In this document: positions 75 to 8,176 of the stretch, one piece after another
Position numbering within the stretch: the stretch's first letter is position 1
Layout: every line of letters starts with the position of its first letter
UHGV virus genome: UHGV-0143082
Length of the DNA stretch: 32,928 bases
Origin: a virus
Direction: 5' to 3' (one strand)
Program-made: the position numbers and the translations under genes
Notes under the pieces: generated by a model
Database searches by the model: none
Seen by the model: the letters and a program-made list of their open reading frames with translations, nothing else
Told to the model about the DNA's origin: nothing

Positions 75-3023
75 TTAGTGCTTCCCTTCTATTAAGTCTA
101 ACCTAGCTTTTATTCTTTCTATTTCTCTGCGCTGCCATGCCGCCTCGATATAGAATAAGAGATCAGGTCTGACCCCCCATCTAGATCCTGCTGGCGTTAT
201 TTCAACGCGCTCAATGATGTCTTCCATTACCATCACTGGATTATCATCCTCATCAACAATGATGCTCCCGTCATTATCAGTCAGCGGTATTTCCCTTTGG
301 CCAGTAATGACGTCATCATATACTGCGGGATAATCGTCATAGCAAAGAAAGGCATAGCGGCATGTTGTGCTTTCTTCTTCCATGAGTCCGTGAGAAATAA
401 GAACATCACGAAGTTGCTGCGCGATTACACCATGATGTATCCTCGCCCCTTCTTCCCCCTTTATAGCGACAGCGTTCAGCCATTTATAAGCGATATACCT
501 GACGTCACCCCAGGCATCCAGCAATGCTTCGTCAGGAGAGACCGCCTCTGTCTTTAATGTTCCGTCACTGGTAACCACAGGATTGGAGCCAAGATAAACT
601 GTCGAGAACCTGTTTCCCGGACCACCAAGAGCATTTACATTATCAAGATAAGGTTTAACATCTCCGTTCTCAAAAAGATGTTCGAGTGCGTTATATACCG
701 CGCGACGTGGAGTACTGCTTCCGGAACCATGCAACGTTATCATTGCGCCATCTGCTGAAGACGTTGTTTCACCGCCGCTAACGATTAATCTCTGAGCGGT
801 AACATCATCAGACGGTACTTTCTTCGCAATAATGGCGTAATTACCCTCAAGTTTGACTTCCGCGCGAACTTGTCCTGATGTACCTGCATGGACAGTCAGT
901 GACTGGACGGCAACATCATCTGTGAAATCAACGGGTACAGGAACCGTCCTCACGCCTGACGTCGACATAAAAGTAGGAAGCGTTCTGTTAGGAGTGGCTC
1001 CGTAGACAAAATCCCTTGAAACAAATTCTTCCTGTTTAATTTTCACCCTGAAACAATACAAATCAGCCGGGTGACCATCGTGAACATAAGGATATTTTCT
1101 GTTGTTATCCCCTATGCTCCATGGGTTTAGAAAGTCTTCCCCACCGAAAATGTAGTACAGCCAGTTGTCTTTGATACAAACTGAACCAACACCAACCGCA
1201 GAGTTAACTATTCCGCCCTGATAAATCTGATCAGTAACATTAACCCACTCTACATTATCCAGACTCCACTCATTGACGTTAACTCTGGTCATAAATGTTC
1301 TTGGATAATTTCCTGCATAACGGTTATCAGGTTCTCCTCCTTCCCACTCACCAAATGCGCGCTCACTGCCAAAAATAATCAGCTCATCGCCAACTTTGGC
1401 AAAAGGAAGGTTTGAGTGATGAACATTATTTGGGAAGCGAAGAGAATTCCATGATGTACCTAAATCAGAGCTTCTGTGCAATGAACTACCGGGTTGAGTA
1501 CTTAATGTCCCCCTGGTCGTCAGATACAGAATGCCATCATAATATTTTACACATGGCTCAGATGCATTCGCCTCATATTCTGCAGGTATGCGTCTGCGAA
1601 CAAAGCTACCAGGAGAACCGAAAGCATCAGAGAAATAGAGTATCCCAAGCTCGCGTGGACCAATATCACCATTATGGTAGCCAACAGCAAAACTGTTATC
1701 GCTAATCGTCGCAAAACTGTGAATCTCAGTAACAGGAGTGCTTCCGTCAACAAAAGAAGAAATAGTTCCAAGACTGGTTTTTCTCCATGGTGACGAGTGA
1801 AATGATGTACCAAAACTCCAGTATCTACCCTCGTTATTCTGATCCACATCCTGAGTATTTTGCGTCGTAACTGTAAAAGTATTTTTATCAATAACAGTAG
1901 TCACCGTCATATTCCCGGTAACACCTGTAACACCAGAGTTTGAGAAGTTGACAAAATCACCAGCAAATAATCCGTGATCAGTAATGCGAATATAAGCGAC
2001 TTGCTGATTTGCTGCTTTCGTTATACCACCATAAACGCGAAGGCTGCGACTCATTGGACGATCCCACAACTCTGCAACCTGCAGTTTATTTCCGCGCACG
2101 GTCCGCGTCTCAATTACAGCAAAAAGGCGATTTCTGACAACCCCCATACTCATGCAGTGATAGTTAACTGTGGGATAGTTTTCATGTAAATCTGTAAGCC
2201 ATTCCGGCGTTGTCCAGGTCTTCCCGTCATCTCCTGAGCGAACCCATGCAACATGGAGGTTATTTACACCATGGCGGTCTCCAGCCATAAAAGGCGCATA
2301 GATGACATTGTCATATACAAACGTTTTATCCTGCGTCCAGGCGTTGTACCACGGTGTATCTGTAATTTTAAATAACTCTCCTTGGATAAAATCTTCAGAA
2401 GCATAAAAAAGAGGCTGACCCGGTATTCTCTCAAATAAAAAACGAGCATTTTTAAATCGACTGACATCTGGAAGAGTTGATACTTTAAAAGTAAGCCCTC
2501 GCCCATCTATCTTTTCACCACCTGTTGCAACAGAAAGTAATTCTGATAGAGCTGATGTATCATCATGAACACCATCACCAATAGCCCCCCAACCTCTTAC
2601 ATCATAACTGTCTCTCCATCTTGCTATCTGAAGTTTTGGGTATTTATTCGCTCCATCTGGGTCTTCTAATTGCTGTCGTAACTGATCAGGATCATACTTC
2701 AGCACATTCGGAAAATAGAACTGCTGCACACCGTACGCATCATAAACAGCCATAGAATGGCCCTGTACAGTAACGAATTTGGCAATCTGTCCGTTATATA
2801 CCGGATATCCAGCAGCGTTAATGATGATTGGTTGCGATACAGGAACGTGAGAGCCGTCTTCGTTCTCCACATAAACCTGAATCTGGTTTTCAGGATTTAC
2901 AGGGTCAGTGTCAATTTTACCGATATAAATTTTACCATTGGCTACGGCTTTAAAAGAACGAGCCATAGTGAAGAGTTGCGAAGGCATACTCACTACAACA
3001 TTGGCATTTATTGAATCTGTCAT
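75..3023 (-). CDS. Tailspike protein: P22 gp9-like head-binding N-terminal domain fused to endosialidase-like body with C-terminal intramolecular chaperone domain
   Basis: 982 aa; N-terminal ~115 aa closely resemble P22 tailspike ([45 protein letters not shown]); two Asp-box motifs SGDDGKTW and SSDLGTSW; C-terminal region resembles the self-cleaving chaperone of endosialidases. Confidence 0.8.
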
Positions 3024-3123: not shown

Positions 3124-4059
3124 TCAGTAGTTATGTACTGAAGGAGGTAATTCTTTATTCTTAAGTCTCATCCATGCGGAAAGATTCGTTGGTCCGTCTG
3201 GCTCATTAATATCAACATCTCGTGTGTGGTTTATTAAAACGTCTCTCGCCATTCCGATAACATACGAGAACTCATGACCGTAGTCGTAGCATCTGCCGGA
3301 ATAGTTCGATTGAATTTGTTTTAATGCCGGATACAGTTCGCGGAATAATGCCTGTGAACGGTTGGCATAATCCCATAGCCATACAAGGCTGTTTGCTTCT
3401 TTTGCAGAAAGCTCGTTGACTTTCCTCTCTTGTTTGCCGATGAACTCTCCTTCAAGCGGAACGCGAGCTGCAAGTGACAGTGCTTCGGTAAACTGCTCCT
3501 CACTAATTTCTTTGTACGAACATCCAAAATGGGATTTCAGTGACGACCACATGGTGATCATCGCCTTAGCCTGTTTTTCTTTTGGCAGAGACTGACCGCG
3601 ACTCATGACGAGTTGTTTAATGGCTTCCTGCTGTTCAGTGGTGATTTTACCCTGCAACGCCTTTTTAGCTTTGCGTGGGTTAACTACATGGCCTTTAGTC
3701 CAGTAGTCATGCAGCACGCTAAAGCATTCCTCCTGGTACTGAATCAGTTTATCACGGATGTCAGCACGAACTTTCTCAGGGTTGATGCTGAACAGCCATC
3801 CATTTAACTTCTTCAAAGGAAGGCAGAGTAGCTTACGAAGCTTCCCATCAGCGGCAACCATGTTCATATGAACACAGTTGAATTTGCTAATCTGCTTCAT
3901 GAGTTTTGTTTGCTGCGTTGACCAGCTCATTCCAAGGTTTTCAACGATTGGCTTCATCGCAACATATGCAACTCCGGCAGCCATGGCGGTGATAATTTGC
4001 TGACCGTTGAATGGTACGTAAGAGGTGTTCACTGCTTCTAAAATTGCTATACTATTCAT
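3124..4059 (-). CDS. ant: Antirepressor Ant
   Basis: N-terminus [21 protein letters not shown] resembles P22 Ant; sits between arc and tailspike as in P22 immI. ORF-track start at 4089 is a TTG; the ATG at 4059 with upstream GGAGA is preferred. Confidence 0.75.
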
Positions 4060-4130
4060 GTTGGTTTTTCTCCAAGGATTTACCGACAACCGAAGCCCTG
4101 ACTGTTACCGCAGTTGGGGCTTCAACTTTT
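4060..4130 (+). ncRNA. Candidate sar-like antisense RNA covering the ant ribosome-binding site
   Basis: Extended -10 TGcTATACT at 4045-4053 on +; predicted start about 4060; hairpin 4092-4123 (gaagccc/gggcttc) followed by U-rich tract; arrangement mirrors P22 sar. Confidence 0.3.
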
Positions 4131-4346
4131 CACTTCTTTAAAGTGCCTACCTTCTACAGTTGCTCTGAGATAAAAATTCTTATCTTTACCGTTTAGTGCT
4201 TCCCAAGCATCAACAATGCACTTATTACAGATGTGGACTTCTCGATAACCAATAGCTTTCCTGTCAATATTAGTGAACATAACAGCTTCTTTATCTGTCA
4301 ATGTGGATGCATGACAGAAGTCGCAATCTATATAAGATACCTTCAT
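4122..4346 (-). CDS. Small zinc-ribbon-like protein of unknown function (two CxxC pairs)
   Basis: 74 aa; CDFC and CNKC motifs; ATG overlaps the arc stop (ATGA), suggesting translational coupling; not present between arc and ant in P22 as I recall. Confidence 0.5.
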   Translation of the reverse strand: MKVSYIDCDFCHASTLTDKEAVMFTNIDRKAIGYREVHICNKCIVDAWEALNGKDKNFYLRATVEGRHFKEVKS

Positions 4347-4501
4347 ACCGTTATCCCCTCTCTCTTCAGGCTGTCCAACACTCGCTTGTAAATCTCAGAG
4401 TTAACAGATCGCCCGTTCTCTTCAGCTACCTTGCGCACCAAATCCAATACTTCTTTAGGCCACCGCAAATTGAACTGAGGCATTTTTCTTGCACCTTGCA
4501 T
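4343..4501 (-). CDS. arc: Arc repressor (ribbon-helix-helix)
   Basis: Hand translation gives MQGARKMPQFNLRWPKEVLDLVRKVAEENGRSVNSEIYKRVLDSLKREGITV, near-identical in core to P22 Arc; below the 60-aa cutoff so absent from the ORF track; an upstream in-frame ATG at 4522 is an alternative start. Confidence 0.8.
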   Translation of the reverse strand: MQGARKMPQFNLRWPKEVLDLVRKVAEENGRSVNSEIYKRVLDSLKREGITV

Positions 4502-4522
4502 ATTCAACTCCATTTCACTCAT

Positions 4523-4594
4523 TGATAGTACCGTACTACTATTGAAAGCGTACTACTACCGTTCTAGCATGTCAACAAATAAAAGGAGAACGAC
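4523..4594. promoter_or_regulatory. Divergent Pant/Pmnt promoter-operator region
   Basis: Pmnt candidate TTGAAA(4542-4547)-17-TAGCAT(4565-4570) on +; perfect TTGACA on minus at 4570-4575; palindrome TAGTAccgTACTA at 4526-4538 and direct repeats of CGTACTACTA at 4532-4541 and 4550-4559. Confidence 0.6.
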
Positions 4595-4837
4595 GTGGCT
4601 AGAAATGATCCACAATTCAACGTAAGAATGCCTGATGAGATAAAACAGCAACTTACGCATATTGCTGCAACAAATCGCCGCTCGATAAACGCAGAGATTA
4701 TTTCAGCTATCGAACTATGGATAAAAATTCATAAAGGGCAGCTAATACCTTCAAGTAGTCGAATCCTGACAAAGTCTGAGCAAGAGGCGTTTGATGTAGC
4801 TATTGATGTGTTAAAACGTGTAAGAGATGGAGGATAA
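4595..4837 (+). CDS. mnt: Mnt repressor (Arc/MetJ ribbon-helix-helix family)
   Basis: 80 aa; MARNDPQFNVRMP resembles P22 Mnt N-terminus (MARDDPHFNFRMP); GTG start preceded by AAGGAGA; divergent from arc as in P22. Confidence 0.75.
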   Translation: MARNDPQFNVRMPDEIKQQLTHIAATNRRSINAEIISAIELWIKIHKGQLIPSSSRILTKSEQEAFDVAIDVLKRVRDGG

Positions 4838-4839
4838 CC

Positions 4840-5073
4840 ATGGAGCAACAACAAGGGTCGCCATTATCATTGATTATTATGGTGATTTTTTTCGTTTTTA
4901 TCTTTTTTATACCTGCGTTAAAAATATCCAAAAAGGCCGGTTTTGACTGGAAGATGGCTGTATGTTTAACAATCCCTGGCTTTAACGTGGTGGCGTGGCT
5001 CGCGCTTGCGTTCATGGATTGGCCAATTCACAAGTATCTACCAAAAGATGTGAATCGTAAGGATGCAAAATGA
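4840..5073 (+). CDS. Small hydrophobic membrane protein, unknown function
   Basis: 77 aa with two predicted TM segments; start 2 nt after the mnt stop; stop overlaps next ATG. Confidence 0.5.
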   Translation: MEQQQGSPLSLIIMVIFFVFIFFIPALKISKKAGFDWKMAVCLTIPGFNVVAWLALAFMDWPIHKYLPKDVNRKDAK

Positions 5074-5279
5074 ATAAAAAACAGCTTATTAAGTCAAAAA
5101 CGTCAAGCAAGGAAGAATTAGAGAAGGAGCTAAACTCCCTGAAATATGCTCTGTGTCTGGTTTACTCAAGACTGCCAATGGAAGATAAAAACGCCATTTA
5201 CAATGAAATGATTAGCAGCCTTGATTTTAACGATAGAGACCTAGCATCCCACCTCAACAGCTTCCGCGTCCCTGAGTAA
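5070..5279 (+). CDS. Hypothetical protein
   Basis: 69 aa; ATGA overlap with upstream ORF; AAGGA upstream; followed by the bidirectional terminator. Confidence 0.4.
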   Translation: MNKKQLIKSKTSSKEELEKELNSLKYALCLVYSRLPMEDKNAIYNEMISSLDFNDRDLASHLNSFRVPE

Positions 5280-5439
5280 TTCTGTTGCGGATTTGCTTCT
5301 TGCGGTGGTTTAAGCTGGAGAGCTTGGCTTCTGCTTCTGATATTTGCGCATCTAGATCTTTAAGCTCAAGATCTGAAAGTCGCTGGTCAAGCAGGGTTTG
5401 ATTCAACTCAATGTTGTTCAGGCGTTCTTCTATGGTCAT
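5254..5439 (-). CDS. Hypothetical coiled-coil protein
   Basis: 61 aa; strong SD AAGGAGA 5 nt before ATG; heptad-like leucine spacing; 3' end overlaps convergent ORF 5070-5279. Confidence 0.35.
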   Translation of the reverse strand: MTIEERLNNIELNQTLLDQRLSDLELKDLDAQISEAEAKLSSLNHRKKQIRNRITQGRGSC

Positions 5440-5451
5440 GATTTCTCCTTA

Positions 5452-5483
5452 TAAAAAACCCACCTGACGGTGGGTTAATTTTT
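5452..5483. terminator. Bidirectional rho-independent terminator
   Basis: aacccacc-tgac-ggtgggtt stem-loop flanked by an A-run upstream and a T-run downstream on +. Confidence 0.55.
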
Positions 5484-5566
5484 GCATTTACCTGGGCCAT
5501 ATTGACTACTTATAAAATGAGATCAATATTTAATCGCCCAATAACGGGTGTATGTTGAGGTATATC

Positions 5567-5746
5567 ATGGCGAAAAAACCAGGTGAAAACACAGGAAAAA
5601 ACGGCGGAATATACCAAGAAGTTGGCCCACGCGGCGGTAAGAAAGACAATTTTGCCACCGTCAAGGACAACGAAAGGCTTCCGCCAACAACAAAGCCAGG
5701 TCATGGCTGGGTATTGGATAAGCGAACTCCAGACAGCAAAAAGTAA
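5567..5746 (+). CDS. YjzC-like small protein (recalled family resemblance, uncertain)
   Basis: KKPGENTGKNGGIYQEVGPRGG...PGHGWV pattern; GAGG 6 nt upstream of ATG 5567; ORF-track start 5552 is an in-frame alternative. Confidence 0.45.
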   Translation: MAKKPGENTGKNGGIYQEVGPRGGKKDNFATVKDNERLPPTTKPGHGWVLDKRTPDSKK

Positions 5747-5751
5747 TAATC

Positions 5752-5775
5752 AAGCCGGTTCACTCCGGCTTTTTG
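5752..5775 (+). terminator. Rho-independent terminator after the YjzC-like gene
   Basis: aagccgg-ttcact-ccggctt stem followed by TTTT; overlaps the stop codon of the convergent gene. Confidence 0.5.
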
Positions 5776-6125
5776 ATATGTCGCTCGCAGAACTCAACAA
5801 GCCTGCTCATTAAGTAGCAGTAAGTCTCGTTGGCTCTTCCTGGTTCAACATCAACACCTACCCTTGAGCAGATATCGAATGCCATGTGAGCGCACTCATG
5901 GGCAATAGTAGATAGTTTGCCATTGAACACGCCTATCACATGCAAAACACCATTCTCGCTACTCATTGTATGAGACGCTCCGTTGGCGTCCGAGTCATGC
6001 ACGTCAACGCCAAGTTTTTGATGCAGGCGTTGCCATTCTGGAAAGTCTCTACAAAACACAATTGTACCGCTCTCAAAGAGCGGAACGAGCATCTTTGGTA
6101 CGTTTCCAATGTTAACTTTTTTCAT
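5760..6125 (-). CDS. Putative zinc metallopeptidase-like protein (HExxH motif), unknown function
   Basis: Motif IAHECAHMAF; ORF-track start 6137 is GTG, the ATG at 6125 (MKKVNIG) with AGGA upstream is preferred; located where P22 carries sieA. Confidence 0.5.
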   Translation of the reverse strand: MKKVNIGNVPKMLVPLFESGTIVFCRDFPEWQRLHQKLGVDVHDSDANGASHTMSSENGVLHVIGVFNGKLSTIAHECAHMAFDICSRVGVDVEPGRANETYCYLMSRLVEFCERHIKKPE

Positions 6126-6155
6126 GGTATCCTGCACAAAACTAAGGAGGTTGGT

Positions 6156-6344
6156 GTGAAGAAAAAATTTGTAAACGTTGCAAAGTGCGCAATTTTTATA
6201 TTTTTTATGACCTTTTACGGATTTAGTGCCGGAGAAGGTTTCGATCGTGATGCCAATGCATTCAGTTTCTTTTGTCTGTCTATAGTGGTCATAATTGTAT
6301 GGGTGGAATTAAAGCAAACATTGTTTCATGTGCTAGGTAAATAA
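6156..6344 (+). CDS. Small membrane protein (62 aa), unknown function
   Basis: Strong SD TAAGGAGG 5 nt before a GTG start; two hydrophobic segments; corresponds to the 3' third of ORF-track 5940-6344. Confidence 0.4.
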   Translation: MKKKFVNVAKCAIFIFFMTFYGFSAGEGFDRDANAFSFFCLSIVVIIVWVELKQTLFHVLGK

Positions 6345-6361
6345 CCATCCATGGCATTTAG

Positions 6362-8176
6362 TCACTGCTGTGTTGCCTCAGTGGCAAGCAGCGGTCTGAT
6401 GGCATTTGCAGCTTTGCTTAACGCTCTTTCATAAGCTGGCGTTCCAGCTTTAGTGTTTGCCAGACGTAAGAGAGCATTCCTTGCTGCTTTGGACTCATAC
6501 AAGCGCATGATTGCACCGAAACCAGCCTCAAGTCCCAGTGATACACCAAGGGTTGCAGTTGCGCCAATCGTTCTAATCCTGTTAGCTTGCGATTGTCCTG
6601 TCTGTGTTACTACATTTGCGGCGTCCGACCTTGCTGTTTGCTGTAGAACTTCATGAAGAGCATCAAGCTCTTTCATGTGTCTCCCACTGAATATCGTGTT
6701 ATAGATCTGACCGTCAGATTGCGACTTCAACTTATTTAACTCGGTAAGAAATTTTGTTGGCGAGTCTCCTGCTTTTTCTGCAATCTTGCTGATATAAGCA
6801 GCACGCATAGCGTTCTTTCCATCTTCACTAAGAGCTGGCCATATCCTCTTAATATCTGATGGTTTTCTGCTGAATACAACGCTGTTTATTAGCTCTGGAG
6901 TAAACTCTTTTTTAGCTTTGTTGAGATTATTCGCAATCCTTTTATTAAGAACCTTATTGAAGACGTTGGAGTAGTCAGAGTTTGCTTTGACGTATCTGGC
7001 GGCCTCTCCAGCCCCCAAATACCGCGCTGCGTTATTCCTCAAATCCGCCCCCATTGCCCTCTCCACGGCATCAGTTGCGGCTTTCGCGCTATTAGGAAAA
7101 ACCATGGCATCTCCCTGAATACTTTCCCTCAAGGCTGACCGCAACTCTCTCAATAGACCAAAATCTATATCTGGTTTAGCAAGTTCTTCTCGCAAATCGG
7201 ATAACCCGCGAATCAAATCCTTATTTGCCACTTTCCCAAGCCTATTAGCTCTGGTAAGTACGTTGTCGATAACCTTAATAGATTTTGATGTGTCAACTGG
7301 TGTGTCTCCCATTTTGGCTGTAATGTCTTCAATAACGCTTCCGGCCGAATCCTTCCTTGACTTCAGAGAGCCATACAGATCGTCAACAACAACTGATGGG
7401 CTATATTCACCATATTTCTCAAGCTGTTTTTTAACTAGCTGACTTCTTTTTGCATACTGCTCAGCTCGCTTTGAGCCTGTTCCCAGCAAAGCCCCCTCAG
7501 CATCCTGAGTAAGACCACGAGTGAAAGCATTTTTCGGCGGGATTACATCAGATGTCATTGGTGTTACGCCCATCGATTCTGATGTGGCAATTTTCTTCGC
7601 CACTTCTGGCGCAATATCACCTTTTATAGCCGTTATTCCACGCCCTATTCCCTTTGCTGCGGCGGAAAGAACACCCTGAGCGGCAAGGTTAACTCCGGCA
7701 TTTTTAGCTGCATTTTGTGCGAAATCGCCTTTCTGATTTGCGGCCTCTGCCAGTGATCCAATAGCCATGCTTCCTGCCGTTCCAACTCCTGGAACTAAAT
7801 ACCCACCAATTGTTTCACCGGCTTGTGCGTAGGGGTCTGTCGGTCTGTCTACTGGACGATAAACATCATCCAAAACCTTGGGTCCACCAAGCCCCTGGCT
7901 GATTGCATTAATCAGACTTGCGCCGCCCTGTAATACGTCAAATGGTATGTTTACCAGACCACGACCAGCCTGTTCTGCAATTTGCCCTGCACTTTGACCA
8001 CCAGTGAGCCAGTCAGTAGCTTTTCCTACCAGAGATTGTTCTTCTGGCTGCGATTGGTTTTGAGTGGATTGATCATCAGAAGACAGCATCTGAGCAATGC
8101 GACGTGCTCCCTCAGTATCGCCGGCAGCATCAGCATTCCTTAACGCCGTCATCAACTGTTCACGACTATAGGCCAT
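6362..8176 (-). CDS. DNA ejection/transfer protein, P22 gp16 homolog
   Basis: 604 aa; position and size match P22 gene 16; start overlaps gp20 stop. Confidence 0.8.

Follow-up and report, generated by a model that had tools for sequence, protein, structure and literature searches.

The mnt-to-gene 16 interval of a P22-like Escherichia coli prophage: a probable mosaic of small, independently assorting units around the sieA slot

The interval between gene 16 and gene 9 of P22-like phages, named the 'ant moron', occurs in ten types among sixteen genomes, and in P22 transcripts from the late promoter read through it into the tailspike gene (Villafane et al., 2008; PMC2629481). Two of its P22 genes have described roles in the lysogen: SieA, an inner-membrane superinfection-exclusion protein, blocks DNA delivery at the inner membrane (Leavitt et al., 2024; PMC10883804) and is expressed from the P22 prophage at a low level in published transcriptomics, while Mnt is the maintenance repressor of ant (P22-pbi annotation). 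Here we analyze the corresponding interval of the virus genome UHGV-0143082, in a stretch of 32,928 nucleotides (the window), in which positions 4840–6344 hold six small open reading frames (ORFs) between mnt and gene 16: orf77, orf69, orf61, orf59a, hkcC and orf62. The original prediction, made from this DNA alone, took them for a cluster of lysogen-expressed accessory genes in the position of sieA and a candidate superinfection-exclusion or defense module. We favor another reading, at a probability of roughly 0.6: that recombination has put the interval together as a mosaic of small units, which assort independently and belong to two opposite transcription regimes.

The window is, by its alignments, a P22-like (Lederbergvirus) E. 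coli prophage that resembles CUS-3 and phiv205-1. About 60–66% of its first 25 kb can be aligned at 96–97% identity to these two phages, the closest found, and the 1.9 kb around the interval are 100% identical to chromosomes of three chicken E. coli isolates; the window is oriented in reverse relative to the usual P22 map. The interval is the mnt-to-gene 16 part of the immI/'ant moron' region, a known hotspot, as the original prediction said. Like the moron of P22-like phages (PMC2629481), it lies between homologues of gene 16 and gene 9, belongs with a mnt, arc, sar and ant set, and contains orf59a and hkcC, here 98% identical to P22's own. It differs from that of P22 in joining an Emek-type mnt-orf77-orf69/orf61 block to a P22-type orf59a-hkcC-PsieA block, and in having orf62 where P22 has sieA. 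The guanine-plus-cytosine (GC) content is low over 4600–5200 (0.38–0.39, as against 0.45–0.53 in the structural genes). The high gene flux reported for the ant moron is seen again here, and the region is a new allele of an already known moron hotspot.

Alignment to Emek and P22 places the joints of this mosaic. Positions 4840–5439, with orf77, orf69 and orf61, are 99% identical to Salmonella phage Emek; positions 5453–6158, with orf59a, the terminator t_mnt, hkcC, the promoter PsieA and the leader through the sieA GTG, match P22 at 98% identity without a gap, the match ending exactly at that GTG; and gene 16 is of Emek type again (98.7% identity to Emek gene 16 over 6361–7657). An alignment of all three sequences revealed that a hairpin at 5457–5476 is common to the window, P22 and Emek while its flanks are unlike, and that it is the joint between the Emek-type and P22-type blocks. 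This suggests that terminator hairpins act as recombination joints in the region. In P22, the same 20-nt hairpin spans the mnt stop codon. Emek itself carries, between the hairpin and the sieA slot (contig L002, 3641–4514), a DUF4065-domain gene (orf149) that overlaps orf161 on the late-sense strand, a toxin-antitoxin-like layout at the place held by orf59a and hkcC in the window.

The units also occur apart from each other. Among 80 viral contigs anchored on hkcC, orf59a was present in 70, orf61 in 19, orf69 in nine, orf62 in four and orf77 in none. A survey of 5426 complete E. coli genomes found some part of the region in 448. The orf62 cassette was present in 89, the orf77-orf69-orf61 block was complete in 25, and only five had the full 1.9-kb arrangement. 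Because the six ORFs differ in occurrence across related loci and E. coli genomes, they are not one module, and the independent assortment in the hkcC-anchored loci contradicts the single six-gene module of the original prediction. Moreover, orf59a and hkcC adjoin sieA in P22 itself, in the same interval; since they coexist with sieA there, they are not its replacements. The predicted sieA position thus applies to orf62, which sits at the sieA GTG behind PsieA, and not to orf59a and hkcC, which are P22's own genes beside sieA.

The orf62 end of the interval is a single-gene slot with a conserved 5' boundary. In common with P22 sieA, orf62 has its GTG start and the promoter and leader before it; conservation covers the slot sequence GGTATCCTG..CAAAACTAAGGAGGTTGGTGTG, and from right after the GTG the ORFs are unlike. 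We sampled the slot in the 80 hkcC-anchored contigs and, independently, in an exact-leader scan of at least 120 contigs. The hkcC-anchored loci contained 12 unrelated ORF families after the leader (one of them, encoding a 161-amino-acid protein with a lipobox, has a variant leader), and nearly all of these ORFs reach the gene 16 stop, with gaps of 0–24 nt. The exact-leader scan also gave 12 families, one of which was new, for a total of 13 over both samples; among the exact-leader matches listed, orf62 (10 of 118) and SieA (11 of 118) were about equally frequent. A strongly hydrophobic transmembrane or signal segment, or several helices, is found in 12 of the 13 families (lipobox and signal-peptide calls were made by inspection), and SieA is the sole family with a known function. 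In the hkcC-anchored sample, a CCATCC(A/G/T)TGGC-like motif follows the stop codon in seven of the 12 families; its counterpart in the window, CCATCCATGGC, is a possible 3' boundary of the slot and not a convincing terminator. Together, these comparisons show the predicted PsieA leader and its GTG as a fixed point for the exchange of single-gene cassettes. We found no description of a fixed leader and start-codon boundary of the sieA slot in the literature covered. One contig (L179, the same as L081) carries two PsieA-type leaders (2342–2372 and 4107–4137), each with a different cassette, one encoding a 129-amino-acid Sf6 gp38-like protein and the other a 149-amino-acid transmembrane protein, and these are separated by orf61 and a P63C-like gene, so duplication of the slot is possible.

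The orf62 cassette is mobile as a unit of ~230 bp (window 6138–6366) and is found in other upstream contexts. The preceding gene is that for the 161-amino-acid lipobox protein in Salmonella, a Rap1a-like gene in Serratia and a C2-like repressor gene in phage JEP4, and in all of these, as in the window, orf62 lies 17 nt from the gene 16 stop. Its homologues in Salmonella (many assemblies) and Serratia are 79–82% identical, and the start codon is GTG or ATG depending on the lineage; orf62 went unannotated in all three phage genomes that carry it (phiv205-1, UPF_BP1 and JEP4). The encoded protein, basic at its N-terminus (KKK), has an acidic loop (GEGFDRD) as well as two hydrophobic helices. With P22 SieA (Leavitt et al., 2024; PMC10883804), orf62 shares promoter region, leader, Shine-Dalgarno sequence (SD), GTG and orientation, and it is likewise a predicted inner-membrane protein whose gene abuts the gene 16 stop. 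It differs in having 62 amino acids and two helices, as compared with 164 amino acids and four helices for SieA on the same crude scale, and it falls short of SieA types A–C (~160–200 amino acids, four or five transmembrane helices) in both size and helix count. We rejected the possibility that orf62 is a truncated or divergent SieA: it has no similarity to SieA, lacks the FxRYPxEAxxFNK motif and has separate homologues of its own, and BLASTP of all six ORFs against P22 SieA gave no alignment of note. T4 Imm and HK97 gp15 are short inner-membrane proteins, encoded by phages or prophages, that block DNA entry; orf62 is like them in size, location and genomic logic only, and no homology is expected. 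In the Serratia P22-like prophages (contigs L098–L100, ~3643–3999), the Rap1a-like gene (PF18602, a family of type VI secretion system (T6SS) immunity proteins) immediately precedes the orf62 homologue and, in L098 and L100, is itself preceded by mnt; a prophage may here be a source of T6SS immunity.

Table 1. Features of the window in and around the mnt-to-gene 16 interval
Feature	Position	Strand	Remarks
Tailspike gene	75–3023	(-)	Gene 9 homologue; flanks the region
ant	3124–4089	(-)	Annotated as antirepressor
sar antisense RNA	4060–4127	(+)	Rfam RF00262, 97 bits, full length
arc	4343–4522	(-)	Arc-family match
Promoter-like site for mnt	4542–4570	(+)	TTGAAA-17-TAGCAT
mnt	4595–4837	(+)	Emek-type Mnt/Arc-family repressor, 80 amino acids; Pfam Arc 1.8e-12; Arc family DNA-binding protein by the Prokaryotic Genome Annotation Pipeline (PGAP)
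orf77	4840–5073	(+)	77 amino acids, two hydrophobic helices; phrog_32536
orf69	5070–5279	(+)	69-amino-acid soluble protein; phrog_16466
orf61	5254–5439	(-)	61 amino acids, helical, coiled-coil-like, late-operon sense; phrog_7586
Bidirectional intrinsic-terminator hairpin	5457–5476	both	8 bp, U-run on each strand
Promoter-like site for orf59a	5502–5530	(+)	Identical in P22
orf59a	5567–5746 (alternative ATG 5552)	(+)	59 amino acids, basic, YjzC-like; 98% identical to P22 orf59a
t_mnt terminator hairpin	5752–5771	(+)	Annotated at the homologous position in P22-pbi
hkcC	5760–6125 (alternative GTG 6137)	(-)	121 amino acids, HExxH…E zincin-like, late-operon sense; so named in P22
PsieA promoter	6095–6125	(+)	By homology to the P22 annotation
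Leader, SD and GTG	6126–6158	(+)	Identical to P22 through the sieA GTG; 5' boundary of the slot
orf62	6156 (GTG)–6344	(+)	62 amino acids, two hydrophobic helices; phrog_21338
CCATCCATGGC motif	6345–6355		Between the orf62 stop and the gene 16 stop
Gene 16	6362–8176	(-)	Ejection/DNA-transfer protein; last late-operon gene before the moron

All six ORFs were found on the two strands as predicted, each with an SD-like purine run 5–6 nt before its start (GGAGGA for orf77, AAGGA for orf69, AAGGAG for orf61, GAGG for orf59a, AGGA for hkcC and AAGGAGG for orf62). They behave as coding sequence under purifying selection: in almost every informative pair with a diverged homologue, most of the changes are synonymous. 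The ratio of nonsynonymous to synonymous substitution (dN/dS) is 0.04–0.16 for orf69, 0–0.18 for orf61 (apart from one low-count pair, L023, with seven changes and a ratio of 1.05), 0–0.28 for orf59a, 0.02–0.26 for hkcC and 0.24–0.41 for orf62 in pairs of 79–81% identity (1.27 in the near-identical L060 pair, with three changes); for orf77, dN is 0.12 and dS is saturated. The original prediction had also listed three terminators, of which two were recovered: the bidirectional hairpin at the block joint (-13.6 and -14.6 kcal/mol, z about -3.4) and t_mnt (-14.1 kcal/mol, z -3.6), which has the hkcC stop codon inside its loop and the orf59a stop 5 nt upstream. For the third, the stretch between orf62 and gene 16 showed no folding advantage over shuffled sequence (z -0.5). 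A consensus scan predicted no minus-strand promoter in the interval. An Rfam search returned the sar RNA alone, outside 4840–6344; with sar present, the immI control circuit looks intact. Between arc and ant lies a further 74-codon ORF (4122–4346, minus strand) with two CxxC pairs and a weak match to the ClpX-type zinc finger (18.9 bits); it is orf73 in the Emek annotation and a hypothetical protein by PGAP, and P22 has no counterpart there.

On the plus strand, mnt, orf77 and orf69 are an Emek-type, translationally coupled operon that ends at the bidirectional hairpin. The orf77 ATG follows the mnt stop by 2 nt, with its GGAGGA inside the end of mnt, and the orf69 ATG shares an ATGA with the orf77 stop. 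In other prophages orf69 is coupled to mnt directly, as in E. coli strain 165, where the two genes overlap. Given the coupling of orf77 and orf69 to mnt, which is expressed in lysogens, we reasonably infer their expression in the prophage state. Elsewhere, the position downstream of mnt has another alternative occupant, a ClpP-like protease gene (178 codons, Pfam CLP_protease 8.6e-11) directly after and overlapping mnt, in Pectobacterium prophages (contigs L101 and L102, 3269–3805) and in phage phiv205-1 (L106, 771–1307).

The first helix of orf77 resembles that of YajC, a Sec-accessory inner-membrane protein described as essential for P22 DNA injection (Bohm et al., 2018). We found 12 homologues of orf77, at 64–92% identity, in E. 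coli, Pectobacterium and Pluralibacter. The best match of orf77 among 177,635 PDB sequences is the YajC transmembrane helix (E 0.31), with orf77 residues 4–32 aligned to E. coli YajC 16–44 over a QGSPxSLIxM motif and the transmembrane helix that follows it. The alignment score of 68 was reached by none of 10,000 composition-preserving shuffles, and the best YajC score among the 371 other ORFs of the window was 39; a profile of 13 orf77 homologues matched YajC with 91% probability (hhalign), and the YajC-like motif residues are at least 90% conserved within the orf77 family. Set against this, none of the 13 family members matched Pfam YajC even at E<=10, and the similarity is confined to 26–28 residues of the transmembrane helix. 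Compared with YajC, orf77 lacks the RPQQKR motif and the C-terminal domain; it has a further helix and, unrelated to YajC, a KKAGFDW…WPIHK region that is strongly conserved and the best-conserved part of the family. A recent capture of host yajC DNA was rejected, with nucleotide identity in the aligned stretch only 51%. We treat the YajC likeness, which is one of short sequence similarity, as a lead and not as a finding. One E. coli variant of orf77 (L109) differs from the window only by a change of T7 to T8 (4886–4892) and of A5 to A4 (~4931–4935), which shift 15 codons of the first helix out of frame and back; it could be a sequencing artefact or slippage with compensation.

The two minus-strand ORFs have a different setting. 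The encoded hkcC protein bears out the predicted HExxH motif: H76, E77, H80 and E100 are invariant across 44 relatives at 23–43% identity, and E100 lies 20 residues after H80, a spacing shared with thermolysin-type gluzincins. The family reaches well beyond the P22-like phages: 570 cluster representatives matched its profile at E<=1e-3, and most of these are stand-alone proteins of ~120 amino acids. An AlphaFold (AF2) model with a predicted local distance difference test (pLDDT) score of 87 has four strands, a short helix, the HExxH helix and the Glu helix; it had 27 BFVD matches at E<=1e-3, and the many predicted phage proteins that it resembles, with template-modeling scores of 0.5–0.8, include a few named SprT-like, metalloprotease or PolyVal metallopeptidase. 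With the SprT-like and PolyVal zincins, hkcC shares HExxH, a third ligand Glu, and a beta-sheet followed by two helices; one of the 44 relatives matched Pfam SprT-like (1e-4), and the hkcC of the window had no Pfam match. In Kluyvera, Citrobacter, Mixta and Atlantibacter prophages, the homologue lies just upstream of the terminase genes (in Citrobacter and Atlantibacter it follows genes that resemble lysis genes by inspection), and in Xenorhabdus, Arsenophonus and Moraxella it lies among structural genes, in every case co-oriented with these neighbors. This genomic setting fits a lytic-cycle gene rather than a lysogenic-conversion gene.

The other minus-strand ORF, orf61, overlaps the 3' end of orf69 by 26 nt, and the terminator hairpin on its strand lies 17 nt upstream of its SD and ATG. 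The original label of a coiled-coil protein agrees with the heptad-rich helix seen by inspection and with weak coiled-coil-type matches. Its reading as an XhlA-type haemolysin/holin partner was rejected (Pfam XhlA, PF10779, 14.1 bits against a cutoff of 34.7); where PGAP uses the name 'XhlA' in strain 165, it does so for a call of orf61 with an N-terminal extension. Given the late-sense strand, the lack of a predicted promoter and the late read-through known from P22, hkcC and orf61 are best read as late, lytic-cycle genes. The lysogen-expressed layout of the original prediction is accordingly plausible for orf77 and orf69, by their coupling to mnt, and is at odds with the position of hkcC and orf61. 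The first 10 codons of hkcC overlap PsieA on the opposite strand, and for this reason late read-through and PsieA firing should interfere with each other.

The original label of a YjzC-like protein holds for orf59a only below threshold (Pfam PF14168, 19.4 bits against a cutoff of 25; E ~1e-3). The match recurs, again below threshold, in three to four diverged homologues (16.5–19.8 bits for three), each time over nearly the whole 55-position profile. The convergent orf59a-hkcC arrangement is kept in Xenorhabdus (78% and 63% identity, respectively), Proteus (80% and 63%) and a Pasteurellaceae genome (64% and 46%), in surroundings that differ among these loci. In ten of the 80 P22-like loci hkcC occurs without orf59a, so their pairing is frequent and not obligatory. 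A literature search on hkcC and orf59a function found nothing beyond 'unknown function', and neither gene is among those covered by the P22 deletion study.

Scans of the six proteins against PADLOC-DB 2.0, NCBIfam and Pfam gave nothing usable to connect them with a known defense family. The PADLOC matches were weak, of coiled-coil type and for orf61 only (PbeC 7e-4 and JetC 7.5e-3, over 43–55 residues), with none for the other five. An exclusion or defense function can be hypothesized for orf62 and orf77 only, the two predicted membrane proteins, each with the two hydrophobic helices that the original prediction had counted.

These features can be assembled into a model in which expression timing is taken from P22 literature and annotation. 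The plus strand, antisense to the late operon, would be compatible with the prophage state: a transcript from Pmnt would pass through mnt, orf77 and orf69 and end at the bidirectional hairpin; orf59a would come next and end at t_mnt; and PsieA with its leader and GTG would drive orf62, the one gene in a slot that extends to the gene 16 stop. On the other strand, hkcC and orf61 would depend for their expression solely on antiterminated late transcription, which crosses the moron on its way from gene 16 to the tailspike gene, and hkcC would act in the lytic cycle as a small Zn-metallopeptidase-like protein. The orf62 protein, and possibly that of orf77, would be made in the prophage state as an inner-membrane protein and protect the lysogen at the envelope, most likely by SieA-like interference with DNA delivery by incoming P22-like phages. 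By analogy with the studied occupant of its slot, we regard a SieA-like exclusion role for orf62 as a possibility to be taken seriously although the odds are against it; SieA-like envelope protection by orf77 seems doubtful.

A number of observations weigh against this model. The promoters are assigned by homology to the P22 annotation and by the consensus scan, and the scan did not flag PsieA. For hkcC, searches of the PDB by sequence and by fold gave no significant match to a solved metallopeptidase, and the model fits none of the solved structures convincingly. The argument for orf62 is one of guilt by association: the functional evidence is only its place in a slot whose one studied occupant, SieA, blocks DNA delivery. 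Comparison of orf62 with SieA, Pfam, NCBIfam, PADLOC and the PDB detected no similarity, its constraint is only moderate (the dN/dS range given above), and PGAP did not call it in an identical E. coli genome. Finally, with the Rap1a-like neighbor, the hotspot in Serratia also carries protection unrelated to phages.

That Serratia neighbor suggests the principal rival for orf62, namely that this protein, and perhaps orf77, gives envelope protection other than phage exclusion, such as immunity against T6SS effectors, microcins, colicins or contact-dependent inhibition (CDI) toxins, or is some other lysogenic-conversion factor. Microcin immunity proteins are typically small two-helix inner-membrane proteins, which speaks for this rival, as do the Rap1a-matching gene upstream of the orf62 homologue in the same hotspot and the fact that 12 of the 13 slot families are hydrophobic or carry signal segments, yet only SieA is known to act on phages. 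However, neither orf62 nor orf77 matches a Pfam or NCBIfam immunity family, no cognate toxin lies nearby, and the sole characterized occupant of the slot is a phage-exclusion protein; we consider non-phage protection unlikely, though a real contender. Some of the small ORFs, especially orf62, orf61 and orf69, might instead be functionless, either as remnants in decay or as ORFs that arose by chance in a recombination scar. The missing annotation of orf62, by PGAP and in the three phage records, would be explained in this way, as would the narrow families (12–15 clusters each) and the frame-shifting homopolymer indels in orf77 variants. It is hard to square with the dN/dS values below 1 that all six show in almost every informative comparison, across genera too, with the strong SDs and an orf62 start kept as GTG or ATG, or with the occurrence of orf62, which is as frequent as SieA among the exact-leader matches listed and is present in 89 complete E. 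coli genomes and many Salmonella assemblies, and we give it very little weight.

Two further alternatives concern how the ORFs are grouped. If all six made up one coherent lysogen-expressed exclusion or defense module in place of sieA, the location between gene 16 and mnt at a known moron hotspot, the low GC over 4600–5200, the two membrane proteins and the presence of SDs and terminators of their own would be expected. Such a module is highly improbable in view of units that assort independently, of orf59a and hkcC coexisting with sieA in P22, of the late sense of hkcC and orf61 with no promoters of their own, of hkcC relatives that lie by terminase or among structural genes elsewhere, and of the lack of usable PADLOC matches. 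A smaller grouping would make orf59a and hkcC a functional pair (a protease with its regulator or substrate, a toxin-antitoxin system or an abortive-infection-like system) carried as a two-gene mobile moron. The two genes are 13 nt apart, with the hkcC stop within the t_mnt loop, and the convergent pair sharing one hairpin is kept as far away as Xenorhabdus, Proteus and Pasteurellaceae. Nevertheless, the P22-like loci with hkcC and no orf59a, the hkcC relatives at ~40% identity that lie beside terminase with no detectable orf59a neighbor, the convergent orientation, which means no co-transcription, and again the lack of PADLOC matches make a functional pair improbable.

A more far-reaching proposal would combine the slot, orf62 and orf77. 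The PsieA slot would dock at least 13 interchangeable envelope-guard cassettes, each guarding the inner membrane or periplasm differently against P22-like phages or other attacks on the envelope; orf62 would be a minimal exclusion protein among them; and, separately, orf77, co-transcribed with mnt, would mimic the YajC transmembrane helix as a decoy for, or blocker of, the conduit of ejection proteins, whose delivery of DNA requires YajC. We consider the whole of this combination rather unlikely. Were none of orf62, the cassettes and orf77 to have a phenotype, the region would be merely one more allele of a known moron hotspot. The locus bears on how the DNA of short-tailed phages passes the inner membrane, and on the SieA block and the YajC requirement in that passage. 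With orf62 it adds a small protein to SieA as the second occupant of the slot; orf62 is found about as often as SieA in the contigs sampled, and phage annotations lack it. The 13 cassette families under one promoter and leader form a catalogue that can be swapped one for one in P22, and the first helix of orf77 resembles YajC, the one host protein that P22 injection is known to require. The value of the locus lies in this defined cassette slot, in the overlooked orf62 and in the YajC-like feature of orf77.

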